Shown here one piece after another: positions 1,566 through 42,076 of a DNA stretch of 42,222 nucleotides. Made by a program: the position numbers and the translations under genes. The notes under the pieces were generated by a model. The model ran no database searches and had not been told where the DNA came from. It saw only the letters and a list, made by a program, of their open reading frames with translations. Numbering within the stretch: the first letter of the stretch is position 1; the number at the start of each line of letters is the position of its first letter. Source of the stretch: a virus; the IMG/VR virus record IMGVR_UViG_3300039008_000002, positions 1 through 42,222 of that record; one strand, 5' to 3'.

Positions 1566-3123
1566 TTGGCTGTCCTTCCAGTTGTTGTTGAATTGCAGGT
1601 CCCGCCTGACGGATCAGTTCGGGGGCTAGTTGTTTGACCATGTCCATCCCCTCTGCTTTCTCTTGTCCTTCTTGCTGGACAGCTGCAGGGATGATGAGAC
1701 CATTGAGGTCGATGCCGTCCGCGATTGCGAAGCGGGCGATCAGCTCATCGACGTTGATCTTCTGTGCGATGGCTGGGTTGGCGAGAACACGCTCCACCTT
1801 CTCGATGAAACGCAACAGCTTCTCGCCGTCGTGTCCGCGACCGAGAGCGGCAAAGCCGGTCACGATTGCAGGCTTCACTTCGGACGGCAGCTTCGGCATT
1901 CCCTCAAGACTTTGCAGGAGGAACAGCCGACGCTTCACGTACGGAAGCTGGAACTCCTTCGAGAGGAGCGAGTAGATGCCGCCGAGGCTGTCGTCCAACT
2001 CCTGCGCAACATACCGAACCTCTTCGGCGGTGACGCGCTCGGCATCCCGCATAGCTTCGATGTTGATCAGGAAGGCGAAGGCCAGCTCTCGTTTGATCGT
2101 TGCGATCATCTCCTGCGCAACCCGCAGGTCGGCAGCTTTGTCCATCCGCAGGACGGTGACGTCATTGGCATCACCAGTGCGGACACTGTTGTTCGAGGCG
2201 TGGGCGATCACCTTGGGGTTGGTGGTGCCGTTGGGGCGTACGAGGAAGATCACCTTCGCAGCTGCAGCCGACGCATCGGTGACAGCTTTGGAGAGGATTT
2301 CCAGGTTGTTCAGGTCGCCGAGGAACATCTCGATGTAGGAACGGCCATAGGCTTCGCCGTCCACGATCAGGAACCGCAGCGGGAGCCACGGGTTACCTTC
2401 CTCAGGGACGTTGCCGTCAGTGCCGGGGACCTTGTGGCCACCAATCTCCTGATGCCATACCACCCGGCCATCCTTGCGGATCACGTGGGTGTACATCTTG
2501 AGTGTCTTCTCAGCGTGGTTTTCGTTCTGGAGCTTCCCATCACTGGAGAGCTTCGCTTTGATGTCTTCCGAGAGCGAGGCCGGTGCGACCTCTTCTTCGA
2601 TAACGATCTCTGTCCATTCACCCTCAGGCGTCCGAACCACCACGTACTTGTTCAGGTCGTATTGACGGGACCCGGTCTTGCCGATGTACAGCAAGGTGTT
2701 CCCGACGACGATCAGGTGCTTGAGCGCCTCGAACAGGATGGTGGTGTCGCCGCTGTTCTCGATCTCCCGCAGGGCCTGACGTTCGTAAACGCCGAGACCC
2801 TTCTCCACCTGCGTCTTGAACTCAGGATCGACATCAGGCCGGTTGAGCAGCGTGGTCGAGTTGAGCTTGAAGAACGGGGTGTTCATCGGGAGGAGAGAAA
2901 GCAGCATCTTGGATGCAAGGGTGTTGACCCCACGGGCACCCATGCTCTGGGCAGGGTCCTTGATCTTCATGTTGCGGACGGACTTGTTGTCACGCTGGAA
3001 GAGTGTGGGGATCGTCAGCTTGGCGCACTGGTCACCGCGTTGGGTGAAGTGGTCGCGGTCGCTGGAGAGTTGCGCATATCGCGTCTCGGCAGTTGCGGTT
3101 GCAGTGACTGCCTCTTCTGTCAT
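1537..3123 (-). CDS. Portal (head-to-tail connector, T7 gp8-like)
   Basis: 528 aa. AAGGAGA RBS. Size and position (before scaffold/capsid) match T7 gene 8. Confidence 0.85.
   Translation of the reverse strand: MTEEAVTATATAETRYAQLSSDRDHFTQRGDQCAKLTIPTLFQRDNKSVRNMKIKDPAQSMGARGVNTLASKMLLSLLPMNTPFFKLNSTTLLNRPDVDPEFKTQVEKGLGVYERQALREIENSGDTTILFEALKHLIVVGNTLLYIGKTGSRQYDLNKYVVVRTPEGEWTEIVIEEEVAPASLSEDIKAKLSSDGKLQNENHAEKTLKMYTHVIRKDGRVVWHQEIGGHKVPGTDGNVPEEGNPWLPLRFLIVDGEAYGRSYIEMFLGDLNNLEILSKAVTDASAAAAKVIFLVRPNGTTNPKVIAHASNNSVRTGDANDVTVLRMDKAADLRVAQEMIATIKRELAFAFLINIEAMRDAERVTAEEVRYVAQELDDSLGGIYSLLSKEFQLPYVKRRLFLLQSLEGMPKLPSEVKPAIVTGFAALGRGHDGEKLLRFIEKVERVLANPAIAQKINVDELIARFAIADGIDLNGLIIPAAVQQEGQEKAEGMDMVKQLAPELIRQAGPAIQQQLEGQPNGSEEVPSA
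1566..1605 (-). promoter_or_regulatory. Partial third copy of the cassette, embedded in the portal 3' coding end
   Basis: Minus strand GGACCTGCAATTCAACAACAACTGGAAGGACAGCCAA-ATG. It shares CCTGCAATT and the 16-mer CAACAACTGGAAGGAC with the 15.96-16.02 kb cassette but lacks the promoter core. Confidence 0.45.
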
Positions 3124-3132
3124 GGCGTCTCC

Positions 3133-3336
3133 TTACGGGATGTTGACGCCCGAGCCATTAGCCCGAGGTACGTTGAGATCGACGCGGAGGGCTTCAATCC
3201 CTCGCTTGCGTTTGTGGGGTGCCACCTTCAAAGCATCACCTGCGGCTGCGTAACCCATGGCCGTCTCTGACGGGGGCGGGGGCGCTGCCGGGGGAGGAGC
3301 TGGAGGAGGAGGCGTCTTCGGCTTAGGTGGGCACAT
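3133..3336 (-). CDS. Small protein with a proline-rich N-terminus, hypothetical
   Basis: ATG with GAGGAA 7 nt upstream. MCPPKPKTPPPPAPPPAAPPPP followed by a basic C-terminal half. Confidence 0.5.
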   Translation of the reverse strand: MCPPKPKTPPPPAPPPAAPPPPSETAMGYAAAGDALKVAPHKRKRGIEALRVDLNVPRANGSGVNIP

Positions 3337-3505: not shown

Positions 3506-3522
3506 GGCGGGGTTCCTTTGGA

Positions 3523-3538
3523 ATGGTGGCACCTAATT
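3523..3538 (-). promoter_or_regulatory. Variant phage promoter (2 mismatches) upstream of the late/structural block
   Basis: Minus strand GAATTAGGTGCCACCATTCCAAAGGAACCCCGCCATG. The consensus GGGACC is replaced by GGTGCC. It leads directly into an RBS and ATG. Confidence 0.55.
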
Positions 3539-3568: not shown

Positions 3569-5437
3569 CTACTCACATGTCCGCTTCCCTGTGGCGGGAT
3601 CGAACGTACAAGCTGCCCCTTCGTCCCACGGCTCATCGTCGGGGAGAGGGTCGCCTGTCTCAGGGTCAACGCCATACATCTCGCAGATGCGATCAGACAC
3701 ATCGAACGGGTTCTTGAGATCGGCATAGGTGATAACCACTGCGGTGATCGCAGCCGCGTACCAGCCCTTGATCTTCGACCAGATCGACGGCTTCTTGGTC
3801 TCCTCGATAGCGTTGAGGATGCCGAAGCGTTTACCTGCCGAGCGGAAGGTCGTGCATCCCTTCGCGCCGCCGAGCCACGCCTTCATGTACACGTCCTTGA
3901 ACTCCTCGAACGTCACATCGTCGCCGATGTTGCAGGTCTTGGAGCAAGCACTGTCCACCCACTTCTGGAAGGCGATCAGCATGTCCACGTGTTCAGCCGG
4001 TGCGAGGTCAGCTGCGGTGCGTCCCTCGATCCCCCACTCGCGGTAAGCGTAGTCGGTCACACGCTCTACCTTGGCACCGTCGAACTGCTGCACAGTGCGG
4101 TCGTACTCAAGGAGAAACGGTGGCTCGATGCCGGAGCTGATGTTGTCAGCAGCCAGAGCGATGGAGCCGGTCGGAGCGATGGAAGTCAGGTGCGAGTTGC
4201 GGATGCCCCAGCGACGGATCGCGTCCTGTACCCACGGGTCGAGCTTCTGGATGAACTTCGAGTTGACATACATCGTCTCGTCGTAGAGCGGGAACGCGCC
4301 CTTCTCACGAGCCAGATCAACCGAGGCCATGTAGCAGGCGTTGGTGAACGCTTCCATGGTCTCTTCGACGAACTGGACAGCATCGTCAGTGCCGTAGGGG
4401 TAGCCCAGAGCTTCCAGTGCATTGGCCACACCAGCTGCGCCCAGACCCATCCGACGCTTGTCCTTGGCTTCCTTCTCCTGCTCGGGCAACGGGTAGATCG
4501 TACGGTCGATCACGTTGTCCATGGCACGGACCACATGCGGGATGTCCAGCATGAGCTGGTGCATGTTGAAGCGGAAGCTGCCGTCTTCCCGGCGCACGAT
4601 GTACGCTGCCCAGTTGAAGCTGCCGAGTAGGCAAGCACCATGGGGAGGGAGCGGTTGTTCGCCGCAAGGGTTGGTCGCCGCGATGGTCTCGCAGTACCAG
4701 AGGTTGTTCATCTTGTTGATGGTATCGAGGAACAGCACACCGGGTTCAGCCCAGTCCCAGGTCGCCTGCATGATCTCGTCCCACAGCTCGACAGCACGGA
4801 TGGTCTTGACCACCTCGCCGTTGAATTTGAGATCGAAGTCGGTGTCGTTCATGACAGCATGCATGAAGGTGTCGGTGATCCCGACGGAGATGTTGAAGCG
4901 ACGGAGCGTGGTGTTGTCCTGCTTGGCGCGGACGAAGTCGAGGATGTCAGGGTGATCGACACGCAGTACACCCATCTGGGCACCGCGACGGTTACCAGCT
5001 GAGGCTACGGTGCCGCAGGTGGCATCGAAGGGTTCCATGAAGGAGAGAGGGCCAGACGCTTTGGAGCCGAGGGATTTGATCTCAGCGCCACGGAAGCGGA
5101 TGGTCGAGAAGTCATAGCCGATGCCGCCGCCCTTTTGCATGGTGAGGGCAGCTTCTTTCAGGCGGTCCATGATGCCTGTCATGCTGTCAGGGATGGAGCC
5201 AGAGACGAAGCAGTTGAAAGCTGTGGTTGAGCGGAAGGAGCCAGCTGCGGATTGGACGCGGCCAGCGGGGAGGAAACGACGGTTGAGCAGGATTTGGTAC
5301 AGCGCCTCTGCATGCTCGGGGCTGTCCGACAGAGCGTCGGCGATACGGCGCATGGCGACCTCGAAGGTCTCGCCGGGTTGGCGGTGCTTGTCTCGTCCTG
5401 TTTCCTCGGAGATCGGGAGTGTGGGTCCGTGGTTCAT
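3569..5437 (-). CDS. nrdJ: Ribonucleotide reductase, class II (adenosylcobalamin-type, NrdJ-like)
   Basis: 622 aa. Contains the motif ATNPCGEQPLPPHGACLLGS, LPAGRVQSAAGS...NCFV near the N-terminus, and a C-terminal Cys pair (ACTFDPATGKRTCE). Confidence 0.85.
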   Translation of the reverse strand: MNHGPTLPISEETGRDKHRQPGETFEVAMRRIADALSDSPEHAEALYQILLNRRFLPAGRVQSAAGSFRSTTAFNCFVSGSIPDSMTGIMDRLKEAALTMQKGGGIGYDFSTIRFRGAEIKSLGSKASGPLSFMEPFDATCGTVASAGNRRGAQMGVLRVDHPDILDFVRAKQDNTTLRRFNISVGITDTFMHAVMNDTDFDLKFNGEVVKTIRAVELWDEIMQATWDWAEPGVLFLDTINKMNNLWYCETIAATNPCGEQPLPPHGACLLGSFNWAAYIVRREDGSFRFNMHQLMLDIPHVVRAMDNVIDRTIYPLPEQEKEAKDKRRMGLGAAGVANALEALGYPYGTDDAVQFVEETMEAFTNACYMASVDLAREKGAFPLYDETMYVNSKFIQKLDPWVQDAIRRWGIRNSHLTSIAPTGSIALAADNISSGIEPPFLLEYDRTVQQFDGAKVERVTDYAYREWGIEGRTAADLAPAEHVDMLIAFQKWVDSACSKTCNIGDDVTFEEFKDVYMKAWLGGAKGCTTFRSAGKRFGILNAIEETKKPSIWSKIKGWYAAAITAVVITYADLKNPFDVSDRICEMYGVDPETGDPLPDDEPWDEGAACTFDPATGKRTCE

Positions 5438-5462
5438 TCTTGTTCTTTTTGCGAGGGGTTGG

Positions 5463-5490
5463 AAAGAAAAGCCCCCGCCGAAGCGAGGGC
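5463..5490 (-). terminator. Intrinsic terminator between mazG and the RNR gene
   Basis: Minus strand GCCCTCGC-TTCG-GCGGGGGC-TTTTCTTTCC. Confidence 0.7.
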
Positions 5491-5496
5491 CGTGGG

Positions 5497-5979
5497 TCAG
5501 ACCAGATCGGTCAGATCGGGTTCCCGGTAGTTGGGACCCTTGAGGATTTTGCCGTCCTCTCGGCGGATGGGTTTGCCGTCCTCACCCAGCTTGCTCATGT
5601 TGCTGGCGTGGACCCGGTCGAAGGCTTCCATGAAGACAGCCTCGTCGAAGTAGCAGGTGTACGGCTCGGTCCAGACACCGATGTCGAGGAACAGGCGCTT
5701 CATCGCCTCGGCTTCCTCTTCCGGCATCAGCTTCTCCAGATCGTCCAGAGTGCGACCACCGTCGGTCACGTTGAGGAAACCCATGGTGACGTAGATCAGG
5801 TCCACGATCTCCTTGAGCTTCTGCACCTCGTCGTCACCTTCGAAGGCTTCTTGCACCTCGTCGAACTCTTCACGGATCAGCTTGAGCCAGAGCCGGGGAT
5901 CGAGCGATGCTTCGAACGTGCGGATGAACTCGGCGGTGATCGCCATGCAGTGTGCTTCTGCTTGCAGTGCTGTCAGCAT
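5497..5979 (-). CDS. mazG: MazG-like nucleoside triphosphate pyrophosphohydrolase
   Basis: Internal start MLTALQAE. Contains REEFDEVQEAFEGDD...EIVDLIYVTMG (an EExxE...D MazG-type helix pair) and C-terminal HASNMSKLGEDGKPIRREDGKILKGPNY. Confidence 0.7.
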   Translation of the reverse strand: MLTALQAEAHCMAITAEFIRTFEASLDPRLWLKLIREEFDEVQEAFEGDDEVQKLKEIVDLIYVTMGFLNVTDGGRTLDDLEKLMPEEEAEAMKRLFLDIGVWTEPYTCYFDEAVFMEAFDRVHASNMSKLGEDGKPIRREDGKILKGPNYREPDLTDLV

Positions 5980-6523: not shown

Positions 6524-7368
6524 AGGATGGGTTCCTTGGTTTTGAAGTTGTAGTCTGAGGCGCGGAGGATGCGGGCCACCTGTGCTTGGCGGATGGCTTC
6601 CTCGACACCCAGACCAGCTGCCTCGAAGTGACTGACCACGACTTCCCATAGGTCGTCGCATTCCTCTTCGCGGTAGCGGATCACGGTGTTCCCTTTGTTG
6701 GGACCACTCTTGAGCGTGTGTTCGTACGGGACCTTCTTGAGACCGCCGTCGATGATCTTGTCGGCAATGGTGGTCCCTATTCCGGGGCACCCGCCGTAAC
6801 CGTCTGTGACATCGCCTGACAAAGTCTGCTTGAGCCAGTAGCAATTGGCCTCAAATGCGGAGACTTCGGTGATGTCCCATGCGCCTACGATCTCGACGCC
6901 GTCCTCGCTGAACTGCGCCTTGGTGCGGACGTACTTGCCGGGGATCGTCTTCATGTCCTTGTCGATGGACACGATGATCTGCTCGGCCTTGGAGGGACGT
7001 GTGGCGAGGATGCCCATGAGGTCGTCGCCTTCGAGGCCCGGTGCCATCTTGGCGTCCATGTTCTCGATCATCCATTGCTTCACAGCGAGGAGGACCAGAG
7101 GCTTGCGGACGGTTTTGCGGTGGGTCTTATAGGTGGGCAGGACGTCGAGGCGGAAGTTGTGTTCAGGGTCGGTGAGGCAGAGGACGTGCTTGTCGCCCTC
7201 CAGCTTCTCCATGATGTCCATCACGGTGCTTTCGACACGGGCTGTCACCTCGTCGAAGTTCACGTTCCATGTCCAGTGCCCCGGCTCCCATTCGAGAGCT
7301 GTCTCGCAAGAGGCGGCGCACTGGTAGGCCACCACATCCCCGTCAATGAGGAGTGTGCGTTTTGCCAT
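6511..7368 (-). CDS. 5'-3' exonuclease (T7 gp6-like)
   Basis: Start MAKRTLLIDGD (TGATG overlap with thyX). LEGDDLMGILA, SIDKDMKTIPG, SGDVTDGYGG and the C-terminal ARILRASDYNFKTKEPILWTP parallel T7 gp6. Confidence 0.9.
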   Translation of the reverse strand: MAKRTLLIDGDVVAYQCAASCETALEWEPGHWTWNVNFDEVTARVESTVMDIMEKLEGDKHVLCLTDPEHNFRLDVLPTYKTHRKTVRKPLVLLAVKQWMIENMDAKMAPGLEGDDLMGILATRPSKAEQIIVSIDKDMKTIPGKYVRTKAQFSEDGVEIVGAWDITEVSAFEANCYWLKQTLSGDVTDGYGGCPGIGTTIADKIIDGGLKKVPYEHTLKSGPNKGNTVIRYREEECDDLWEVVVSHFEAAGLGVEEAIRQAQVARILRASDYNFKTKEPILWTP

Positions 7369-8057: not shown

Positions 8058-8471
8058 CTATCTCTTTCGGAAACCCGCGTAGGGGCAGTTGATGTCTTTG
8101 GGGTGGAGGGTGATGGTGTCCTTGCCATCCAGCAGAGATGCCGGGATCAGCCAGAGACGGTGCTTGTGGACGACAGCCAGCAGGTCGTACCTGTCAGCTG
8201 GGTCGAGTGCATTGGTGGCCCCTAATTGTCTGACACGGACAGCTTTGTCCGCAGCAGCTGAGGTTTTCACCTGTACTCGCTGGAAGCCATGGCCGGTCTG
8301 GATAACCAGATCGACCCAACCGGGAACGGCTGGCCAGTAGATCGGCATACCTTCTGCGAGGAAGTACGAGGCGACAAGGTGTTCCCCTGCCGCCCCGAGG
8401 TAGTGGCTCGGGAGTGAGCCGTTGTGGTCAATGGGTCTCTGCCCAGTTGGCCCCGTACTTGTACTCGCCAT
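8058..8471 (-). CDS. PD-(D/E)XK nuclease-fold protein (free-standing, homing-endonuclease-like)
   Basis: GAAGEHLVASYFLAEGMPIYWPAVPGWVDLVIQTGHGFQRVQVKTS has the D...QVK signature of small PD-(D/E)XK nucleases. The start is uncertain: the ATG at 8471 overlaps the DNA polymerase 3' end by 44 nt. Confidence 0.45.
   Translation of the reverse strand: MASTSTGPTGQRPIDHNGSLPSHYLGAAGEHLVASYFLAEGMPIYWPAVPGWVDLVIQTGHGFQRVQVKTSAAADKAVRVRQLGATNALDPADRYDLLAVVHKHRLWLIPASLLDGKDTITLHPKDINCPYAGFRKR
8212..8227 (-). promoter_or_regulatory. Variant phage promoter-like sequence (2 mismatches) inside the PD-(D/E)XK ORF
   Basis: Minus strand ACAATTAGGGGCCACCAATGCAC. Lies ~160 nt upstream of thyX. Confidence 0.35.
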
Positions 8472-13336: not shown

Positions 13337-13357
13337 AGGGAAATTGGAGGGATTGCT

Positions 13358-13373
13358 ATGGTGGTCCCTAATT
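13358..13373 (-). promoter_or_regulatory. Phage-RNAP promoter core overlapping the amidase stop codon
   Basis: Minus strand GATCAATTAGGGACCACCATAGCAATC. AAT TAG is the last codon plus stop of the amidase. Confidence 0.8.
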
Positions 13374-15990: not shown

Positions 15991-15998
15991 TTGATGCA

Positions 15999-16014
15999 AT
16001 GGTGGTCCCTAATT
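15999..16014 (-). promoter_or_regulatory. Phage-RNAP promoter core just downstream of the RNAP gene
   Basis: Minus strand TGCAATTAGGGACCACCATTGCATC, followed by the conserved leader. This is the same position as T7 phi1.1. Confidence 0.8.
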
Positions 16015-16032: not shown

Positions 16033-16044
16033 TTGCATTGATCA
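16033..16044 (-). promoter_or_regulatory. Conserved motif TGATCAATGCAA (copy b); its TGA is the RNAP stop
   Basis: Minus strand TGATCAATGCAAGGCGGCATAG. Confidence 0.5.
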
Positions 16045-18690
16045 GGCGAAAAAGAAGTCCGACGAACGCACCTCTTCGAGATCGAGGTCGCCCTTCGCCG
16101 GGACACTGGGTACTTTCTTCTCGTCGGCCTCATCCACCTGCCGCAGGATTTGCTGACGGAAGTCGTCCAGCACGTCCAGCTCGGAGTAGAGGTTGACGAA
16201 TGCTTCACGCAGGCAAGCAGCCAACAGGTTACTGTCGGCGGCATGAGTGCCGAAGCTGTCGTGGATCATGGCAAAGCTGTCGATGCCATTCTCCGTGGCG
16301 TAGCACACGCTCATCATGAGGTGCGTTGCGTCCATCGAGTGGACGAAGTTGGGGCTGATGGCATTGGCCATACGCCGACGGTCAATGGTGTCCTGCTCGG
16401 ACGACAGCGACAGCCTGATGGTGGTCTCACCGAGCTTCGTCTTCACACGGCGGGACTTGTGGTTCTTGTACTGCTGCATGACACGGAAGCCGGTCGGTGT
16501 TGTCCAGTACACAGGCAGCTGCTCTGCTGCTACGACCTTCGCACACTTCTGGAGCCAGTCCATGGCAGCACGAGCTGCGATCACGACCTCACCAATGGCG
16601 TCCCAGATCAGGGCCGACATGTACTGCGTGGCCTTGAAGGTCTTGTCCTTCGTCCACGGCATGGTGAAGCCAGACGACAGCTGGTCACGGAGCCATTCCT
16701 CGGTGTACTCCCGGCAGCTGTACTGCGTGGAGCCGTAAGGCAGGGTCATGACCTGACGCTTGGTTGTCTTACGCGACGGCTGCAGCGACAGCCAGCCCAA
16801 GGCATAGACCTCCTCATCTGAAAGTCCCTTAGCTTCAGCTAGTTCAGCTATAGCTACAGCTGAAGAGTGGTTTTTCAGCGAGGAGTTATTCGTCTCTTCG
16901 GAAATAGCTTTAGCTATGGTGGTCCCTAATTCCCCAGCAGCCAGCTTGAGCTTGTCCATCACCTTGTCACAGACCCGTTGATAGATGTCCTCAGGGGTCT
17001 CAGCAGGCAGCAGGTTCACTGCCCGTCCACCCACGCTATCAAGCAGCATGGCCGAGAAGTGCTGGATGCCCGAGCAGCTGCCGTCGAGAGCAACAGCGAT
17101 GCGGGACATGTAGCCATAGCCCTGCTCCACGAACTCTGCCCACTCGAAGCAGAACGCGAGGAACTGCCACGGCTTGTCGGCATCGTGCCAGAAGCGACAG
17201 CCGAACGGATCGTTGGCGCACATGATGATCTCCTGCTCGTGGTCTTCAACCCAGCCGATGCGGTCCTCAAGCGAGGCCTTGTCGTAGCCGAACACGTTGG
17301 AGCCGTGGATGGCCAACCAGCCTGCGCCCACGCCGTCCTCGATAGGCTTGGCATCGGCGAACTCAAGCAGGCCCTTGGTCACGTCGTTGCCCTGCGGGTT
17401 GAACGAGGGGATGGCATACACCCGACCACGGAAGTCCAGCTGGTACGGGAAGTAGATCGCCTCAGCTTCGGCCAGCATGTCAGCCACCTTGATGGTCTTG
17501 GCGAGAGACAGACGCTTCGACCGGAGCGACACGTTGCCAGCATGTGCAGCGTACGCACGTTGCTTCCACTCACGCAGCACGTCCTCATCCTCGAAGCAAT
17601 CGTGGTCAGTGGAGCCACGGGTGTTCAGCTTAGGCAGGTCGATGGGTGCCGAGCAGCAGGGGCATGCCACATAGGCGGTGTCGTCCCGTGCCGGGAGCTT
17701 GGCCACGTCCTGACCACGTTCCCACAGCTCGACGAGGGTCTCCCGCACACGCGGGTTGATGCGCCAGCGGGTGGACTGCAGCGCGTTGATGGACTGGTAG
17801 ACCATGGGCATGTCCTCTGCGTGGTCGGCCAGCTCGGTGAGGTAGTTCCGGTTGCCGGTCTTGACCATGTTGTTTCGGGACTGCGCATCCTGGGTAAGGT
17901 AGCCACCGTTGTACGGGTCCGTCCAATCGAGAGGCTTCACGATCATCGGCATGTAGGCAGGCGACAGCAGCTCAGTGCGGGCAACCTCCTTCTCGATCCA
18001 CTCGACCAGCTTGGTGGTGGGCTGCAGTACCTTGACGGTATCGCGGCGGGTGTTCACCTCGTCAGCCACCTCGATCAGCCCGGTCTGGGTGATCATGTTG
18101 ACCAATGCCGAACCCACCTGCAGGCAGTCGTCCTCAGGCCATGCGTTCCACTCGGTCTCGTTGAAGCGGCGGTCATAGCCAGCCATGGTAGCCTTGCGGC
18201 GGTGGTAGGCGGTGGCCTTCCCTGCCCGGTCCAATGCCCGGTCATACATCTTGCCCTCGTTCTCCTTGAACTGAGCGAAGCGGACCTCGTCTTCGATGCG
18301 CTTGCCGATGTTGACACACACACGCTGCATCAGCTGCTTCTTGCCGGTCAGGCTGTCCACGACCACACGCATAGCGATGAACCCGGCCACGTCAGGCTCG
18401 ACCTGTTCGAGGTACTTGATGGCGACGTGACGGCGACCAGCCTTGGCTTTGCCTTGAGTGATGAAGCCGGTGATTGCCTCGGCCAGCTTGTCGATGGACA
18501 TGGCGACCAGCGTCTTACCGTAGCCGGTGCCGCTCTCGTTCCCGCGCTGACGTGCAGCCTCGATCTGCTTCCTGATCTGGTCACGGCCAATGCTGACCAT
18601 GCGTTCTTCCAGTGCGATCTCAGCGGCCAGCATTTCATCTCCATATGTTGCGGACAGCTCGTTGATCGGGCGGCGAAGGGTGGTTTCCAT
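16042..18690 (-). CDS. Single-subunit DNA-directed RNA polymerase (T7 gp1-like)
   Basis: 882 aa. Contains ALDGSCSGIQHFSAMLLDSVGGRAVNLLP, MIHDSFGTHAADS, ISPNFVHSMDATH and a C-terminal SSDFFFA (T7 has DFAFA). Confidence 0.97.
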   Translation of the reverse strand: METTLRRPINELSATYGDEMLAAEIALEERMVSIGRDQIRKQIEAARQRGNESGTGYGKTLVAMSIDKLAEAITGFITQGKAKAGRRHVAIKYLEQVEPDVAGFIAMRVVVDSLTGKKQLMQRVCVNIGKRIEDEVRFAQFKENEGKMYDRALDRAGKATAYHRRKATMAGYDRRFNETEWNAWPEDDCLQVGSALVNMITQTGLIEVADEVNTRRDTVKVLQPTTKLVEWIEKEVARTELLSPAYMPMIVKPLDWTDPYNGGYLTQDAQSRNNMVKTGNRNYLTELADHAEDMPMVYQSINALQSTRWRINPRVRETLVELWERGQDVAKLPARDDTAYVACPCCSAPIDLPKLNTRGSTDHDCFEDEDVLREWKQRAYAAHAGNVSLRSKRLSLAKTIKVADMLAEAEAIYFPYQLDFRGRVYAIPSFNPQGNDVTKGLLEFADAKPIEDGVGAGWLAIHGSNVFGYDKASLEDRIGWVEDHEQEIIMCANDPFGCRFWHDADKPWQFLAFCFEWAEFVEQGYGYMSRIAVALDGSCSGIQHFSAMLLDSVGGRAVNLLPAETPEDIYQRVCDKVMDKLKLAAGELGTTIAKAISEETNNSSLKNHSSAVAIAELAEAKGLSDEEVYALGWLSLQPSRKTTKRQVMTLPYGSTQYSCREYTEEWLRDQLSSGFTMPWTKDKTFKATQYMSALIWDAIGEVVIAARAAMDWLQKCAKVVAAEQLPVYWTTPTGFRVMQQYKNHKSRRVKTKLGETTIRLSLSSEQDTIDRRRMANAISPNFVHSMDATHLMMSVCYATENGIDSFAMIHDSFGTHAADSNLLAACLREAFVNLYSELDVLDDFRQQILRQVDEADEKKVPSVPAKGDLDLEEVRSSDFFFA
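16843..16864. promoter_or_regulatory. 22-bp near-palindrome (20/22) inside the RNAP ORF, ~55 nt downstream of the internal promoter
   Basis: Plus strand ttcagctatagctacagctgaa against its reverse complement ttcagctgtagctatagctgaa. Confidence 0.4.
16916..16931 (-). promoter_or_regulatory. Phage-RNAP promoter core inside the RNAP ORF
   Basis: Minus strand GGGGAATTAGGGACCACCATAGCTAAAGC, read in frame as GELGTTIAKA. The 16-nt core matches perfectly. Confidence 0.6.
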
Positions 18691-18705
18691 GGGTGCAATT
18701 CCTCG

Positions 18706-18718
18706 TGTTGCGGCAACA
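18706..18718. promoter_or_regulatory. Perfect 13-bp palindrome TGTTGC-G-GCAACA, 2 nt upstream of the RNAP Shine-Dalgarno
   Basis: Plus strand tgttgcggcaaca. Adjacent inverted repeat GCAACAG-TTGTTG-CTGTTGC at 18713-18732. Operator-like. Confidence 0.5.
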
Positions 18719-18766
18719 GTTGTTGCTGTTGCACATCATCTAATGCCACCCTGCATAGGTGGCGCG

Positions 18767-18797
18767 AAAAGAAAAACCCAACGCCTAAGCGTCAGGT
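18767..18797 (-). terminator. Intrinsic terminator between tRNA-Leu and the RNAP gene
   Basis: Minus strand ACCTGACGC-TTAG-GCGTTGGGT-TTTTCTTTTCG. 9-bp stem, tetraloop and U-run. Its last nt lies 76 nt upstream of the RNAP ATG. Confidence 0.7.
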
Positions 18798-19071
18798 TTT
18801 ACTGATGTTTCAGGGAGTGATGCCAGTGTGCATTGGCGGCGGACGAGAACCTAAATCTAATTCAGCCGCTTCTTCAAACCTGTAAGCTATTGATTTCTCA
18901 ACAACTTCTTCTCACTCCTACGTTGCAAACACTGCCTGTTTCGGCAACATCTGCAACAGCTTCTGCAACAAAATCCCAAGAGGGAAACTGCTGCGTTCCG
19001 CAGGTAGACACACGTCCATTGGCGCATCTACCAAATCTACCAGACACCCATCGTGTTGCCGATGTTGCGGC

Positions 19072-19156
19072 TGGTGCGGGCGGAGGGACTTGAACCCCCA
19101 CGCCTTGCGGCGGCTGGACCTAAACCAACTGCGTCTACCAATTTCGCCACGCCCGC
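19072..19156 (-). tRNA. tRNA-Leu, anticodon UAG, class II (long variable arm), CCA encoded
   Basis: Minus strand GCGGGCG-TG-GCGA-AATTGGTAGA-CGC-A-GTTGG-TTTAGGT-CCAGC-CGCCGCAAGGCGT-GGGGG-TTCAAGT-CCCTC-CGCCCGC-ACCA. Perfect 7-bp acceptor stem, 5-bp anticodon stem (one G-U), variable-arm hairpin CGCC/GGCG. Confidence 0.9.
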
Positions 19157-19218
19157 ATCGAGGCGAGGTGATAGCGCGGTCGCATGGTGTTGGCAAGTGT
19201 GCATCGGACGCCGGAGTA

Positions 19219-19234
19219 ATGGTGGTCCCTAATT
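19219..19234 (-). promoter_or_regulatory. Phage-RNAP promoter core upstream of tRNA-Leu
   Basis: Minus strand GAGAATTAGGGACCACCATTACTCC. Lies ~60 nt upstream of the tRNA 5' end and overlaps the stop codon of the 68-aa gene. Confidence 0.75.
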
Positions 19235-19438: not shown

Positions 19439-20476
19439 TTATCCTTCCAATGCTTTGACTGCGTTCATCAGGTCCTGCGGATACAGGTGCGAGTAACGCA
19501 TGGTGGTTGCGATGTTCGAGTGCCCGAGCCAAGCCTGCACGACAGGCAGGGAGACACCCTTCTGCACCAGCCGCGAGGCTGTGGTGTGACGGCAGACGTG
19601 GAGCGTGAAGTCCTTGTCCTCGGTCAGGTTCATGTGGGCACGTGCCTTGTCCCAAGCGTGGCGCATCTCTGCCTCACCCAGGTTGAAGCACCTGCTTCCC
19701 ATGGTGCGACGTTCCATGATGGACGCCACGCGCTTGGTCATAGGCACCGACCTGATCTTGCCGTTCTTCGTACCCTTGCCTTCCTTCCCGTAGACCATGA
19801 TCACACCAGTGGTGAGGTCCACGTCTGTCGGGCGCAGGTTGAGCAGCTCACCCCGACGCATGCCGGTGTCGATCAAGACCATCACGGCCTCGCCCATGTC
19901 GTCAGCCCCGACGTTGAAGAACCACGTGAGCAGCACGTCTTCTTCCTGCCTGCTGATCTGGCGGATGCGACCGACCGGCTCCTTGCGCTGTCGTGGCAGC
20001 TTGAGCGGGACCTCAAGACCACCGTAGTCGTACGCCACCTTGGCCATCTTCGAGAGAGCCGACCGCTTCCTGTTGATGGTGCTGTCGCTGTTCCCTCGGG
20101 TCTCGCAGTCATGCAACCATGCATCAATCCGGTCACGAGAAAGCTCTGCCAACTTGGTGTTGGGTCCGAAGAATGTGATCGCGTCCTGTGCGTTGAGCGT
20201 GGCCTGCTTCTCGTAGCTGATGCCTCGCCACCCCTCAGGCTTGGGCAGGGACAGCAGCTTGTCGAGCGCCTGCTGTAGCGTCCAGCCTACGGCATTGGCC
20301 CGCACCTGTCGGACCTCCTTGCCTGTCTCAAGCGCCTGCTGCAGCTCATCCTTGCGGGTCATGGCCTCGACCAGCGAGGCACAGGTGGCTGTCTTGCGCT
20401 TGCCGTTCACCGTCACATCGACGAAGAACTTCTCGCCGCGCATGCGGATGCCTCGTGGTAGGTTCAATGCGTTCAT
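19439..20476 (-). CDS. int: Tyrosine recombinase / phage integrase
   Basis: 345 aa. Catalytic-type signature: RRGELLNLRPTDVDL (Arg), HVCRHTTASRL (HxxR), WLGHSNIATTMRYSHL (His...Tyr). Confidence 0.9.
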   Translation of the reverse strand: MNALNLPRGIRMRGEKFFVDVTVNGKRKTATCASLVEAMTRKDELQQALETGKEVRQVRANAVGWTLQQALDKLLSLPKPEGWRGISYEKQATLNAQDAITFFGPNTKLAELSRDRIDAWLHDCETRGNSDSTINRKRSALSKMAKVAYDYGGLEVPLKLPRQRKEPVGRIRQISRQEEDVLLTWFFNVGADDMGEAVMVLIDTGMRRGELLNLRPTDVDLTTGVIMVYGKEGKGTKNGKIRSVPMTKRVASIMERRTMGSRCFNLGEAEMRHAWDKARAHMNLTEDKDFTLHVCRHTTASRLVQKGVSLPVVQAWLGHSNIATTMRYSHLYPQDLMNAVKALEG

Positions 20477-20488
20477 GTCTTATCCCTT

Positions 20489-20824
20489 TCACTCCATCAG
20501 TTGTTCGATCTCAGCCAGCACGGTTGCTCCTTTCTTGGTCAGCTGGCAGCGGACCCGGCGTGGGTCCTCGTGGTCAGGCACCATCTCGATCCAGTCGAGC
20601 GGATGCTTATGTCCCCGCAATGGCTTCTCGCCCAAGTGAGCGAGGATGCGGGCGACGGTGGATTGGTTGAGACCTGTTGATGTCACGATGTCTCGAACCA
20701 GTACGCCTTCCCGTGCCCCCTTACGTGCCACGATGAGCAGCACTTGGAGCCGGGTCAGGGTCATCTCCCTGTCGTACTTGAGAAGGTGTGTACTAACCCT
20801 CAGTAAATTCGCAGTTCCTTTCAT
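20489..20824 (-). CDS. MarR-family winged-helix transcriptional regulator (candidate repressor)
   Basis: Start MKGTANLL with an AAGGAGAGG RBS. LTRLQVLLIVARKG...VLVRDIVTSTGLNQSTVARILAHLGEKPL...DPRRVRCQLTKKG is a typical MarR wHTH plus wing. Confidence 0.7.
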   Translation of the reverse strand: MKGTANLLRVSTHLLKYDREMTLTRLQVLLIVARKGAREGVLVRDIVTSTGLNQSTVARILAHLGEKPLRGHKHPLDWIEMVPDHEDPRRVRCQLTKKGATVLAEIEQLME

Positions 20825-20855
20825 TGATCCTCTCCTTTTTCCTTCCTGCTGCACT

Positions 20856-20985
20856 GGTAACGTACAATGCCAATCTGCCTAGATCGAGGCAAATCTCCTC
20901 CCGGCCTGTACATGTGATAGCAGGACGCTTCCATGCAAGGAAGCGAATATAAGTTACCGTAACGTCAAGCATCCCCGGTAACGTG
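20856..20985. promoter_or_regulatory. Three CGTTAC-containing sites upstream of the MarR gene (candidate operators)
   Basis: GGTAACGTAC (20856-20865), the palindrome-containing GTTACCGTAACGTC (20953-20966, GTTAC-C-GTAAC) and GGTAACGTG (20977-20985). A CTTGAC box overlaps the middle site on the minus strand. Confidence 0.35.
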
Positions 20986-21139
20986 AGTGGTCGCCACGCT
21001 TTCATTCGTTATTGTTTCCTTCACCAGCAGCTAGTGGTGCTGCTCCTGTTGCGCGTTTTGTGAGTGTGTCCTGACCCGTCTGCCTACTTTTTGTGCAGAG
21101 TGTGAACACTAGGTGACGGGTCAATACTAGACCAATCGG

Positions 21140-23213: not shown

Positions 23214-23304
23214 GGTTTCAGCTCCTATGTTTGGTTGGCTCATCAGTGACCGGGACCCACCCGGCCAGACGCCCCTTGCGGAGCGTTTCGCCTTTGATGC
23301 CACG

Positions 23305-23316
23305 TTGCATTGATCA
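23305..23316 (-). promoter_or_regulatory. Conserved motif TGATCAATGCAA (copy c); its TGA is the stop of the 251-aa early gene
   Basis: Minus strand TGATCAATGCAACGTGGCATCA. Confidence 0.5.
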
Positions 23317-24069: not shown

Positions 24070-24501
24070 GGGATTTACCTCAATTTGGCTGGTGTTTCGC
24101 TGTTGCTGCAGCTCATCAGTGAACCCCGGCAGCGATGCCACGCTGCATAGGTCCAGACACCAGTTTTCGAAGGCGGCGGTGTGTGCCATTGCTCATTCTG
24201 ACGCTAACTCGACAGATAAACCCTCATCAGCCGGGGCGTTGCTACTCCCTTTCCACGTTACGTTTCAGGGCGCGTTGCCGACCGTCCTTCCCTTGTGCCA
24301 TTCTGGGGCTGTCCAGCAGGGTGGGTGTCGCTGGATCGTTGCGGCGCTGTCTGCGTCGTTTCGATGTGATGGTTATCGCCGATGCCAATCTGCATTGCAA
24401 GCACAAATTTCGCATCTACCTGCACTTTTCTTGTAAGCTACTGTTTTTCTTACGTAATCTCCTGCTATTTCTTTTACTACTGCAACAGATACCACGCCAC
24501 A

Positions 24502-24512
24502 TTGCATTGATC
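24502..24512 (-). promoter_or_regulatory. Conserved motif GATCAATGCAA (copy d), non-coding, in the early leader
   Basis: Minus strand AGATCAATGCAATGTGGCGTGG. Confidence 0.45.
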
Positions 24513-24952
24513 TCGGGTAATAGCTCGCGCGTGAGGCTGGGGCTATGGCTGTTGCGTGATTTGCAAGCACAAATGCAGAAGAAAGACAGAAGTGCAGACA
24601 AAGCGCAGCGACGTTGCAACAGCCTCGCGGTGGCCGTCACTTGGGCTGAAACTCGCGCTAATCCGTGCATGAATGGATATGGTATCTAACGCGGAACCCT
24701 GCAGAATAAGGCTTTCCCGCGCCACGATTGCAGGATTGTTGCAGGGCTGTTGCGCGGCGCATGCTTTTCCACAGGTGGGCGGCGGCTCCTTACCCCCAGG
24801 GGGGGATCGCAGCGCCAGCCTATATCGGTAAGCTGATCACATTTTTCACCCCAAAACATCTCGGGTGGTAGCCTGCGATAACCCGCACAGGCGACGGGAG
24901 ACACTGATCACCTCCTTTCAAGGGCTTTCCACGAGGAGGGGATGAAGCAGGT

Positions 24953-25115
24953 GGTCAAGCTGTTGCTACCACATAAGTGGTCAAGCTGTAGCTATTCCCT
25001 ATTGCTATGTGCCTCACGGAGGGTAGGCTGTTAAGCCTTCCCCGGAGTGAGGCGGGAGGCTTCCACGAGGAGGGGTCTGTCCCCCTAGCCATTCGCAACT
25101 GGTCAAGCTGTTGCT
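24953..25115. repeat. Three copies of GGTCAAGCTGT(T/A)GCT interleaved with two copies of TTCCACGAGGAGGGG
   Basis: 15-mers at 24953-24967, 24979-24993 and 25101-25115. Second family at 24927-24941 and 25061-25075. A 42-nt imperfect hairpin (25011-25052) lies between them. Confidence 0.75.
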
Positions 25116-25151
25116 TCTCTCTATAGGTATAGCAACGGCCCAGCATTTGCA

Positions 25152-25167
25152 ATGGTGGTCCCTAATT
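25152..25167 (-). promoter_or_regulatory. Phage-RNAP promoter core (start of the early leader, after terL)
   Basis: Minus strand AATAATTAGGGACCACCATTGCAAA. Confidence 0.75.
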
Positions 25168-28470: not shown

Positions 28471-29750
28471 TACCAGCCCTCCGAGTTTGCGCCGCCGCCG
28501 AGAGGGTAGTAGTCGCTACCGTCCGTCAGGAGGCGGAAGTTCTTTATGTAGCCCGTCGTGTTGACGTAGCCCTTACCGCCGTCGAATTGGTTGCCCTTCA
28601 CGCGGGCGTAGATGCGGTCCCCCGGATAGACCGAGACCGAGGAGATCGACTTGTAATCGCCGGTCGTGGAGGTCGTGGTGAACGATTGAAGCAGGGTGTC
28701 GCTCCCGTTCCGCACACGCCGCACCTCCACCGTCGCATTGTACGAGCCATTGCTGGTTCGCAGTGCGCAGGAGATCCGCACGGTTCCTTCTTGGAGGAAG
28801 TAGAAGGAGTACCCAACCCCCCATGACCCGCTCCCACTGCGGCTAACTTCGGTGTCGTAGCGAGCGCGGACTGTCCAACCTGCAGTCAGGGTTCCAACAA
28901 CACCGTCAGCACCTGCAGCACCTGCAGGACCCTGTGCGCCAGTCGCACCTTGAGGGCCAGTCGCACCAGTAGCGCCAGCGGTCCCTTGAGGACCCTGAGG
29001 ACCAGTCGTGCCTTCCCATGTGCCGATGTTGGTGTAGGTGCCAGCACCTGTGACCTGATAGACGTTGCCGTTGGTGTGGTAGTAGATGTCCCCCACGGTC
29101 GAAGCTGTGGAGTACGCACCGACGTTGGAGCCAGTTGCGAACTTGTCACCGTCAGCACCAGCAGGGCCAGCAGGTCCAGTTGCACCTTGGGCACCAGTTG
29201 CACCTTGAGGGCCGGTCGGGCCTTGAGGGCCTGTATCACCAGTCGTACCTTGTGGGCCTTGGATACCTTGGATGCCCTGAGGCCCTTGTGTGCCCTGTGG
29301 TCCTACGAGGTCGGTAAACGCAGGCCATGCCCCGTCGGGTTCTTGGAAGCGGACAGCAGAGGTCGGAGCGTTTGTGCCATTCCCCCACTCATGGTCAGGC
29401 GCTGCACCTGTGTTGCCGACAGGGCCTTCTGGTCCGGTCACACCTTGCGGGCCTTGCAGGCCTTGGTCGCCTTGGACACCCTGAGGGCCAGTCGCACCAG
29501 TTGCACCCGTAGGGCCAGTCGCACCTTGAGGACCTGTTGCACCATCGACGCCGTCTACTCCGTCAGCACCGGCTTGTGCCATGAGCTGCCAGTAGGTGGC
29601 GTTCGAGGGAGCGATCCCTGCGGTCGTTGTGAGGATACAGACATAGCTGCTCCCTTGGTACGTCACAGCGTCGAGCGGGTTGTAGACCGTCACCGCGCTG
29701 TAAGCACCTTTCCAGCCGATACGAACTCGGCCAATGTTGAGTGTTCCCAT
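28470..29750 (-). CDS. Distal tail-fibre protein with three collagen-like G-X-Y tracts
   Basis: 426 aa. The N-terminal [34 protein letters not shown] is a carbohydrate-binding-like repeat. Three G-X-Y runs are followed by a ~150-aa non-repetitive C-terminal domain. Confidence 0.75.
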
Positions 29751-29753
29751 AGT

Positions 29754-30827
29754 TTACACCGTTGTTACTGAGAGGTTTCCATCAGCGTCGATGCTGAAAT
29801 CATTGTCGTTTGCTTGCCCGTAGTATTCGATCTGCAGGACACCATCGGACGAGATCGAGAAGGCACCGAATGCCAGCCCGAGCGGGGTAGCCCCCATCGG
29901 CCCTTGGTCGCCGCGCGGCCCCTTGTCGCCAGTATCTCCGGGGAGACCTTGGACACCTTGAGGGCCAGCGACACCTGTGTTGCCTTGGATGCCTTGCGGT
30001 CCCTGTGAGCCAGTCGGGCCGGTAGCTCCGGTCGGACCTTGGAGACCAGTGGGACCTTGTAGGCCGGTGGGACCTTGAATGCCTTGGACACCGCGCGGAC
30101 CAGTCGGACCCATAGGACCTTGTGCGCCTTCGGGGCCGAGGATGCCTTGGTCGCCTTTCGGACCTTGGATACCCTGCACACCTTGGATGCCTTGAGGGCC
30201 AGTAGGACCAAGCGGGCCAGCAGGACCTTCGGGACCGGCGGGACCCTGAGGCCCTTCCGATAGATGGAAGCGCAGGATGCCGTTGGCCTTGTCCACTTCG
30301 ACATAGCCGTCCTGTCCCCATGGCAGTTGCTCCACCACGGTCGTCATGTTGGCGAGGTTGTCGAGGATCAGCCGTGCCTCGTCGAGACTGGCTTCCCCGT
30401 ACTGTGTCAGGTAGGCCTTACTCACGGCATCGCCGTCGAGGATAGCATCAGCCACGTTCATGACACGCCGGTCGAGCGCATCGTATTGGCCGTTGAGGGC
30501 GACACCCATCGTCTCGCTGAGGAAGTCTTCTGCTTCCTGTGCAACGAACACAGCCTGCATTGAGGAGGTGTCGAGGTCGTCCTCGGTCAGGGTCTCACCG
30601 TCGTTGAAGTCCACCAGCCGTTGGCGAGGTGTTTGACGTACGATGCGGACCTTGGTGCCGTAAGGCGGGGCGGGTGTGACTGAAAGCGAGGATGCGTTCA
30701 ACCACGAGAAGTTGGTTTCGACCTCCTGAACGAAGACCTTCACATGGGTCTTGTCGAGGTAATCGAAGGAGAAGTTGAAGATGGTCTGTGCGCCATCTCC
30801 TGTGTAGTCAACATATGCGTTAGCCAT
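29754..30827 (-). CDS. Tail fibre, T7 gp17 N-terminal adaptor domain plus ~40 uninterrupted G-X-Y triplets
   Basis: [24 protein letters not shown]...[17 protein letters not shown] parallels the T7 gp17 N-terminus. It continues as [22 protein letters not shown]...GDQGPMG. Confidence 0.85.
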
Positions 30828-41719: not shown

Positions 41720-42060
41720 TGTGTGTTTCCTTTGAGATGAGTTCACAGGGGTTGTTGCGCCCTAGACACTCACTCGCTCCCGACAGGGTTATCCTCCGCA
41801 GAGGGCCAAGCGTTCCGCTCGTGTGTCTTGTGGTTGCCTACTCGCTTACAAGCGATGATGGCTTTCTCATCAAAGGAAGGGCCCGTCAGGGAGGCAAACG
41901 ACGGTGATTAACCGCTGTCACTTCCTCCCATCTGGGGGTCGGTTGTGGATGTTTTGTATAGCGACCTCACTAGCCGCTCCGTACGCACCGAGGCATCCAC
42001 GGTGATTAACTCCGCTTCGTTTGCCACTGGCCCGATCAAGGGCGAGGGGTGCGTATTGCA
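41720..42060 (-). other. ~340-nt ORF-free, repeat-containing 5' leader of the capsid gene
   Basis: The longest minus-strand ORFs here are 7-10 codons. Two copies of GTTAATCACCGT, plus the long-range complements GGCAAACGA/TCGTTTGCC and GTGGATG/CATCCAC. Confidence 0.6.
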
Positions 42061-42076
42061 ATGGTGGTCCCTAATT
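42061..42076 (-). promoter_or_regulatory. Phage-RNAP promoter core (capsid promoter)
   Basis: Minus strand AATAATTAGGGACCACCATTGCAAT. It shares a 25-nt identity with the copy at 25152-25167. Lies ~340 nt upstream of the capsid ATG. Confidence 0.8.

Follow-up and report, generated by a model that had tools for sequence, protein, structure and literature searches.

Why would the short spacer between a phage tRNA gene and the phage RNA polymerase (RNAP) gene be packed with copies of a single hexamer? The question is raised by positions 18691-19071 of IMG/VR virus record IMGVR_UViG_3300039008_000002, a stretch of 42,222 nt that we analyzed in full and refer to as the window. The window is the circularly permuted genome of a temperate T7-like phage with every gene on the minus strand, in the order terminase, leader, early genes, MarR-like gene, tyrosine integrase gene (int), an open reading frame (ORF) of 68 amino acids, tRNA-Leu(TAG), spacer and RNAP. 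An earlier note on this DNA proposed that the copies of TGTTGC, or its complement GCAACA, in the 381-nt spacer between the tRNA and RNAP genes are integrase arm-type sites flanking the core of a phage attachment site (attP) in the tRNA, operators through which a phage repressor shuts off RNAP synthesis, or both. Our results indicate that the hexamers, extended to TGTTGC(N)G, are very likely arm-type binding sites of the phage integrase at attP. Judged by sequence comparison, the spacer has those defining features of a lambda-type attP and its arm-type sites that can be tested. The relatives used for comparison, referred to by L numbers, were collected through their RNAP and integrase proteins, with integrase homologues 40-94% identical.

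The hexamer cluster and the probable attachment core

All nine copies counted in the earlier note were found within 18706-19068, on the plus strand at 18706, 18721, 18727, 19054 and 19063 and on the minus strand at 18713, 18944, 18953 and 18965, where 0.48 copies are expected per 381 nt at the window-wide rate. Genome-wide, the window holds 53 copies compared to 26.4 +/- 5.4 in shuffled sequences, and the spacer is the most extreme local cluster among all strand-collapsed hexamers of the window (Poisson 2.3e-9, or about 5e-4 once corrected for the number of hexamers and windows). The extension TGTTGCNG is present in eight of the nine spacer copies. As an 8-mer it occurs eight times in 365 nt of the spacer compared to 15 times in the remaining 41.8 kb, i.e., an approximately 60-fold enrichment, and one further copy is found at 18646, just within the RNAP gene. 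Across 14 related loci, the second base 3' of the hexamer is G in 69 of 82 sites. A by-product of composition or codon usage might be suspected, as the hexamer is two times more common genome-wide than in shuffled sequences. However, coding regions hold only about 1 copy per kb compared to 24 per kb in the spacer, and the two frequencies do not match.

The probable crossover region is the 11-nt sequence GATTTAGGTTC (18847-18857, minus strand), located 215 nt downstream of the complete tRNA-Leu(TAG) (19072-19156, minus strand; detected by ARAGORN and as Rfam RF00005 at 50.7 bits), between the triple repeat and an intrinsic terminator. It corresponds to the anticodon loop of tRNA-Leu(TAG) (TTTAGGT) with 2 bp of stem on each side. 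This core is flanked by five hexamers towards int (P arm) and four towards RNAP (P' arm). In gene sense and relative to the core centre, the P arm comprises two distal sites, TGTTGCcgaTGTTGCgg (19054-19068, plus strand), at -214 and -205, and three proximal sites with 9- and 12-nt spacing (18944-18970, minus strand) at -116, -104 and -95. The P' arm (18706-18732, minus strand) reads GCAACA GCAACA ac TGTTGC c GCAACA, with sites at +122, +128, +136 and +143. The palindrome TGTTGC-G-GCAACA (18706-18718) and the inverted repeat GCAACAG-N6-CTGTTGC (18713-18732) described in the earlier note can be read directly in this arm, as can its near-contact with the RNAP Shine-Dalgarno sequence GAGGAA (18699-18704), from which the repeats are separated by 1-2 nt.

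The same geometry recurs in relatives. Homologues of the proximal P-arm cluster lie at -62 to -138 in L014, L015, L016, L022, L023, L018, L024 and L026, and P' sites occupy +122 to +147 in seven related attP, with the +128 site present in six and the +135-137 site in all seven. Free attP with TGTTGC/GCAACA on both sides of an anticodon-loop mimic were found in L014, L015, L016/L025, L022, L023, L029 and L110, and every related locus is significantly enriched in sites (P 3e-4 to 7e-12). L021, with 94% integrase identity, was left out of this attP footprinting because its contig stops 245 nt after int. While the core keeps a fixed position relative to the sites, the complete tRNA does not: in the window, L014 and L022 it is found beyond the P sites, in L015, L016, L023 and L002 it falls between these sites and the core, and in L110 an inserted 500-nt Acb2/Tad1-like gene parts it from attP. 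The core, and not the full tRNA, determines where the sites fall. A core within the full tRNA gene was rejected, as the window has no arm sites on the int side of the tRNA and the junctions seen in relatives coincide with the mimic downstream of it. The proposal of arm-type sites around an attP core therefore holds with regard to the flanking hexamers, but not with regard to where the core lies. Approximately 10 nt after the core, CCAATGC (18830-18836) is found at the same offset in L014, L016 and L022; it could derive from the variable arm of the tRNA, which reads CGCCGCAAGGCG in the host, or serve as a core-type site or as one for an accessory protein.

The position of the P' arm could also mean that the repeats act as RNA, through a hairpin in the 5' untranslated region that affects RNAP translation. 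GCAACAG-CAACAA-CUGUUGC, located just before the Shine-Dalgarno sequence, could fold into a 7-bp hairpin, and an inverted pair occurs in the P' clusters of six of the seven TGTTGC-type attP. However, the P-arm sites are direct repeats without hairpin potential, as are all sites in the clade of relatives that uses GTGACA as its motif, and the P' sites of L015 are direct as well. The Rfam search of the spacer returned no RNA family besides tRNA. Action as RNA, or an origin in composition or codon usage, is in our judgement extremely improbable.

The earlier note suggested a comparison with attL and attR of integrated relatives, where the junctions map to GATTTAGGTTC or to its tRNA-Leu(TAA) equivalent. 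Junctions at the core were identified at attL in L003, L004 and L107 and at attR in L018 (the Epibacterium sp. MM17-32 genome), L024, L026, L033 and L108. In L003, L004, L018, L024 and L026, the switch from host tRNA-Leu to phage DNA occurs at GATTTAGGTTC, and truncated host tRNA halves are found at the junctions. The attL of L003 and L004 starts with the host promoter and the 5' half of tRNA-Leu(TAG) up to ...CTGGATTTAGGTTC, followed by phage DNA, GTGACA-type repeats and RNAP, and no intact tRNA was detected by ARAGORN at the attL loci. At attR, the layout in L018, L024, L026 and L033 is P arm, core and host tRNA 3' half, beyond which L018 continues into the host yjeF, P-II and glutamine synthetase genes. 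For a Pseudovibrio ascidiaceicola prophage both ends were recovered, attR in an NCBI assembly (L108) and attL in a separate Logan contig with the same RNAP protein (L107). Its target is tRNA-Leu(TAA), and the L107/L108 pair and L033 have the cores equivalent for this tRNA. Hence, short repeated sites that are unlike the core are present on both flanks, and integrated relatives have them apportioned to attL and attR as expected. The free phages L002 and L005, whose RNAP is 40% identical, show the corresponding order with the other motif: int, three GTGACA, full tRNA-Leu(TAG), GATTTAGGTTC, terminator, four GTGACA and the next gene, with GTGACA almost missing from the rest of their 14 kb. L024 and L026 are genome-length metagenomic contigs whose ends fall within the 3' half of the host tRNA, at or just past the att core, and which represent assembled prophage forms.

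Among the relatives, a change in the type of phage tRNA goes along with a change in the core mimic, and the arm motif is retained. Mimics of tRNA-Leu(TAG), tRNA-Leu(TAA) (L016/L025 and L033), tRNA-Leu(CAA) (L031 and L189-L192) and a Met-type tRNA (L032 and L035) all occur between TGTTGC arms; in the last case the target is on the other strand, the arm motif is the same and no complete tRNA is carried. Integration into a tRNA gene is accompanied in relatives by a compensating phage tRNA of the same isoacceptor. By analogy, the phage tRNA-Leu(TAG) probably replaces the host tRNA-Leu(TAG) that is split by integration.

At the int end of the L004 prophage (L120), no P-arm cluster was found within 878 nt of int, and attR lies beyond the stretch reached. 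L109 has the same type of integrase N-domain, yet no TGTTGC cluster near int. Since L109 contains a RepL-like insertion, its attP may have been lost or moved, and L109 may be an episomal variant. The spacer between int, attP and RNAP also takes up cargo, as seen in the Acb2/Tad1-like anti-defence gene of L110 (11400-11768) and the RepL-like replication gene of L109 (11463-12026).

The probable reader of the motif

The integrase of the window (345 amino acids; 19439-20476, minus strand) was assigned to PF00589 (1.9e-25) and PHROG 1. Its catalytic residues R207, K237, R296, H297, H319 and Y328 are invariant among 63 homologues, and H293 is nearly so. An AlphaFold model from the 63-sequence alignment has a mean predicted local distance difference test score (pLDDT) of 90 and begins with a predicted beta-beta-beta-alpha unit (approximately residues 8-51; strands 10-13, 16-23 and 26-32, helix 35-51) at a pLDDT of about 90. 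A linker at pLDDT 67 follows, and then the core-binding helices and the catalytic domain. In Foldseek, full-length lambda Int (1z1b_A) aligned over 351 columns compared to approximately 285 for constructs of residues 75-356. The predicted structure therefore contains a separate N-terminal domain of the arm-binding kind on a flexible linker.

Covariation of the motif with this domain was seen across approximately 60 integrase lineages, where the most enriched hexamer downstream of int varies and follows the N-terminal sequence family. The lineages place GCAACA (TGTTGC), GTGACA, GGGACA, CGTGAC(CA), GTGCCA or GATGCA in the same layout. Between the window and the distant TGTTGC users L031, L032, L033 and L035, the first approximately 50 residues are 51-55% identical compared to 39-43% for the rest of the integrase, whereas the GTGACA user L005 shares almost nothing with the window in the N-domain. 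Since covariation and predicted structure both point to the arm-binding domain, we infer that it is the reader of the hexamers.

The other protein to consider is a MarR-like winged-helix protein, whose gene immediately precedes int (20489-20854, minus strand; Pfam HTH_27 / MarR_2, PHROG 9665). If the hexamers were its operators, the protein would silence RNAP and early transcription in the lysogen. In support of this, most relatives in both motif clades have a MarR-like gene immediately before int, the P' cluster follows a -10-like hexamer and borders on the ribosome-binding site of RNAP, and in the leader the motif is again found close to a promoter-like element. However, the motif neither co-occurs with the MarR gene nor changes together with it. 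L110 keeps TGTTGC on both arms and in the leader, along with a conserved integrase N-domain, although no MarR homologue was found by tblastn over 21 kb or by Pfam searches of ten early ORFs, and no MarR-like gene was found near int in L032 and L035. MarR identity to the window is 30% in L031 and 24% in L033, both TGTTGC users, and 29% in the GTGACA user L005, i.e., it does not separate by motif. The arrangement of the sites also fits poorly: the GTGACA clade has direct repeats at seven of seven sites, and the inverted pairs of the TGTTGC clade have spacers of 1, 2 or 3 nt, which does not suit a rigid symmetric dimer. Two-fold symmetric sites in a fixed geometry over a promoter were not found, with promoter overlap suggested for the P' cluster only, and the P-arm sites remain with int at attR, distant from any regulated gene start. 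The motif thus appears to follow the integrase N-domain and not the MarR-like protein, and operators of the latter are a very unlikely explanation. The repressor-operator model of the earlier note is not supported for this protein, while the sites may still be relevant for transcription. The MarR-like protein is a candidate repressor but, to judge from these comparisons, TGTTGC is probably not its target. The earlier note had listed one copy in the MarR control region; this copy, at 21047 and upstream of the MarR-like gene, does exist, but the frequency there is that of the background.

Another phage protein with a dual role might bind both at attP and at the early promoter. P2 Cox, an excisionase and repressor, offers a precedent for a single protein with roles at attP and at a promoter, and attP and leader share a motif that changes together across the clades. 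However, no candidate is conserved over all motif users. The 68-amino acid ORF after int was rejected as an excisionase candidate, as it has no family match and no homologue in L001-L016. Moreover, directionality factors normally bind one arm, whereas the motif is here present on both, at approximately -100 and +135. Among DNA-binding modules, only the integrase N-domain is found in every motif user examined, and it diverges between the motif groups; a second protein of the Cox type is accordingly an unlikely reader. We therefore retain the integrase as the protein that most likely binds the hexamers.

The RNAP gene, the early leader and a possible second role

An intrinsic terminator is located between the core and the RNAP gene (18763-18800, minus strand), in agreement with the hairpin and U-run described in the earlier note. 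The scan match at 18800-18773 has 12 pairs followed by TCTTTT, and a 40-nt segment with the terminator stem and a short upstream hairpin has a folding free energy of about -16.6 kcal/mol. A hairpin with a T-run is found at the same place with other stem sequences, flagged by the scan in L015, L022 and L029 and readable in L014, L016, L023, L107 and L002/L005, so that the position is conserved in relatives of both clades.

In the proposed mechanism, integrase N-domains would bind the nine TGTTGCNG sites while the other two domains bind the core flanks, folding approximately 360 bp of DNA into an intasome, with strand exchange within TTTAGGT. The expected target is a host tRNA-Leu(TAG) bearing CCAGATTTAGGTTCTGG. 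Integration would yield an attL that runs from the 5' half of the host tRNA through core, terminator and P' sites to RNAP and the remaining phage genome (junction: host tRNA 5' half, GATTTAGGTTC, TCGTCCGCC), and an attR with int, phage tRNA, P sites, core and host tRNA 3' half (junction: ...GAATTA, GATTTAGGTTC, host tRNA 3' half). The host tRNA-Leu(TAG) would be split and the complete phage copy would substitute for it, which would give a reason for the full tRNA-Leu beside int in these phages. RNAP, the first gene after attP, is found at the attL end of the prophage in L003, L004 and L107. Integration would hence place the RNAP gene at the attL end, severed from the early leader promoters, and amount to a physical uncoupling of the two. 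The terminator would block read-through from the host tRNA promoter and thereby insulate the RNAP gene in the lysogen.

Several promoter-like elements surround the attachment site. The element ACCTATGCAGGGTGGCAT-TA-GATGAT (18735-18760, minus strand) looks like a promoter or operator by its sequence; its -10-like hexamer (18735-18740) lies 8 nt upstream of the GCAACA site at 18721-18726, and relatives show ACCTATGC...GCATTAGATAAT in its place, with -10-like GATAAT. It overlaps one of four copies of the partly palindromic sequence ACCTATGCAG-N-GTGGCAT (18743-18760, 20867-20884, 23297-23314 and 24135-24152; family D3), which precede the early genes for RNAP, the MarR-like protein, an 87-amino acid ORF and DUF7227. 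This sequence is a better candidate than TGTTGC for the operator of the MarR-like protein. A reading of the hexamers themselves as sigma-54 or sigma-70 promoters was rejected, as the GG-N10-GC spacing does not fit and a sigma-70 scan gave 0 sites in 18.5-25.3 kb. A 17-mer, AATTAGGGACCACCATT, is present in nine copies with at most two mismatches, all on the gene-sense (minus) strand, where 0.08 are expected (42060-42076, 25151-25167, 19218-19234, 16915-16931, 15998-16014, 13357-13373, 8211-8227, 6766-6782 and 3522-3538). These are probably promoters of the phage RNAP itself. One copy lies just upstream of the tRNA, and variants occur in relatives (AATTAAGTTCCACCATTA in L107 and AATTAGGTGCCACCAT in L109).

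The earlier note had also listed copies of the hexamer in the early leader. All seven (24482-25114) exist, but only three sites, one of them degenerate, form an array that is conserved in relatives, and two of the seven fall inside a repeated unit, AGCWACAGCTTGACCA. The array, GCAACA-N5-GCAACA-N5-GCAATC with 11-nt spacing (24726-24753, minus strand; degenerate third unit at 24726-24731), starts 46 nt past a conserved C-run (24799-24805) and ends 37 nt ahead of a -10-like TAGATA (24683-24688). A homologous array was found in all 11 TGTTGC-type leaders examined, 30-60 nt past the C-run and approximately 40 nt ahead of a TAAAAC/TTATAA-N17-(TA)GATA promoter-like element, and its carriers include phages with an integrase only 42% identical as well as the MarR-less L110. 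Furthermore, every lineage examined has 1-3 copies of its own arm motif at the homologous position, such as TGTCAC-N7-TGTCAC in GTGACA phages and GGTCAC in a GTGACC phage. Within 130 nt after the C-run, 11 TGTTGC-type loci hold 19 copies of their own motif and 1 of other motifs, and six GTGACA-type loci hold 11 and 1, respectively, although the loci behind these counts are not phylogenetically independent. The same DNA-binding specificity thus appears to act in the leader as well.

Several observations weigh against reading the hexamers as arm-type sites. The array is conserved 5.9 kb away from the attachment site and is not explained by a plain attP model. The P' cluster, placed between a conserved -10-like hexamer (GATAAT/GATGAT) and the ribosome-binding site of RNAP, may be under constraint from regulation besides, or instead of, intasome geometry. 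The sites at 19054-19068 have no exact counterpart in relatives and are therefore the least certain members of the set, and the core of the window was assigned by homology to the junctions of relatives. The arm-binding domain had no Pfam match and gave E = 0.21 in hhalign against the lambda N-domain, and a PDB sequence search with the integrase matched only the catalytic and core-binding part. As sequence methods fail to recognise the domain, its assignment rests on the predicted structure.

The covarying leader array and the position of the P' cluster at RNAP suggest a second, regulatory role. Integrase might double as a transcription regulator that uses its arm motif at the early promoter and at the RNAP gene, which we put forward tentatively and hold to be possible rather than probable. 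If the N-domain does bind all of these sites, the recombinase would act at both control points of T7-like lytic growth, and the integration state would be coupled to silencing. The leader arrays thereby bear on how T7-like phages, which lack a classical CI switch, hold the lytic programme silent.

The leader has further features of its own. At 24915-25130, three AGCWACAGCTTGACCA copies with a -35-like TTGACC and two CCCCTCCTCGTGGAA copies (families D2 and D20) may be early promoters or arrays associated with terminal repeats. The C-run belongs to a module of GATGTTTTGGGG..AAAAATGTGA; this module, followed by TTCCCCCC approximately 30-50 nt further on (about 24799-24860 in the window, minus strand), is shared with L024, L026, L109, L110, L111, L117, L161 and L189-L192. 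It is conserved despite RNAPs that are only 33-40% identical, and may have to do with packaging, with the ends of the genome or with early transcription. The window and L021 have a single difference in the first 513 nt after the terminase gene and diverge sharply beyond. About 30 tandem 12-mers (CCACAGCCNNCA) fill the L110 leader at 5430-5800, and five or six copies of AAATCACCT are present in the L021 leader at about 3060-3210, with none in the window.

Known systems and genomic setting

Lambda attP, with P1, P2 and P'1-P'3 around the COC' core, is likewise served by a three-domain tyrosine integrase, and the window model aligns to full-length lambda Int. Both attP have short repeats unrelated to the core, arranged in tandem arrays on both arms at about one helical turn and spanning a few hundred bp overall. 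However, the window has nine sites in 363 bp compared to five in about 240 bp in lambda, its core is a tRNA anticodon-loop mimic whereas that of lambda is an intergenic site, and its N-domain has no detectable sequence similarity to that of lambda. Mycobacteriophage L5, an unrelated phage type with an unrelated motif, is similar in that its attP has seven arm-type sites in mixed orientations spread over >350 bp and targets a tRNA gene; L5 is not known to carry a compensating full tRNA beside its attP. In the KplE1 prophage, with its IntS/TorI system, arm-type sites overlap the intS promoter and Int represses transcription. The likeness lies in arm-type sites over a promoter or 5' region, through which the window recombinase could also double as a regulator. 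The differences are that the gene after the P' sites is here the phage RNAP and not int, that an extra array is present 5.9 kb away in the leader, and that regulation is here only proposed.

The window shows the HTVC019P-type layout, with int upstream of a single-subunit RNAP and attP in the spacer between them. The T7-like pelagiphages HTVC011P and HTVC025P have int upstream of RNAP, attP in the spacer and a complete tRNA-Leu(TAG) between the two genes; integration splits the host tRNA, for which the phage tRNA has been proposed as a substitute (bioRxiv 10.1101/410191). In that report, the sole account of att sites that we found for this phage type, cores span 11-46 bp and arm-type sites are not mentioned (bioRxiv 10.1101/410191). 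These phages are an experimental precedent for a split host tRNA with a phage-borne tRNA. The present group differs in its hosts, as the relatives are found in Rhodobacteraceae and Pseudovibrio and not in SAR11, and in its G+C content of 60%. A full-text literature search gave no relevant account of arm-type sites in T7-like phages. Our main finding is therefore an ordinary attP anatomy in a phage group where it had not been mapped before, with the covarying leader array as the one surprising feature. It provides a base-level attP map, with core, nine arm sites, terminator and compensating tRNA, for widespread temperate T7-like phages of marine Rhodobacteraceae and relatives. The natural pairs of integrase and arm motif (TGTTGC, GTGACA, GGGACA, CGTGACC, GTGCCA and GATGCA) might also serve as orthogonal integration tools.

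Regarding the remaining genes of the window, the terminase large subunit (27011-25215, minus strand) is directly followed in gene order by the non-coding leader of approximately 1.1 kb. Between the leader and int lie the early genes on the minus strand, including those for a DUF7227 protein, a methyltransferase-like protein and the MarR-like protein. The RNAP (16042-18690, minus strand) is of the single-subunit T7 type (PF00940 at 9e-115, and PF14700). No close cultured relative was found by megablast against phage records, where the only matches were 168 nt of RNAP in Rhizobium phage RHEph01 and a tRNA. A genome scan with RNAP only gave no match, and an integrase-profile scan of one genome per species gave no close integrated copy of the window phage. 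The hosts of the clade are likely marine Rhodobacteraceae (Epibacterium, Loktanella and Roseicyclus) and Pseudovibrio. One IMG/VR contig of 78,980 nt (3300046665_000193; L112 and L114) has two related, non-identical int-attP-RNAP modules approximately 43 kb apart, and could represent two tandem phage genomes or an assembly chimera. In the window, strong local clusters of AGGGCC, ACCTTG, CCAAGG and AGGTGC lie within structural genes at 28900-30050 and are probably coding tandem repeats.

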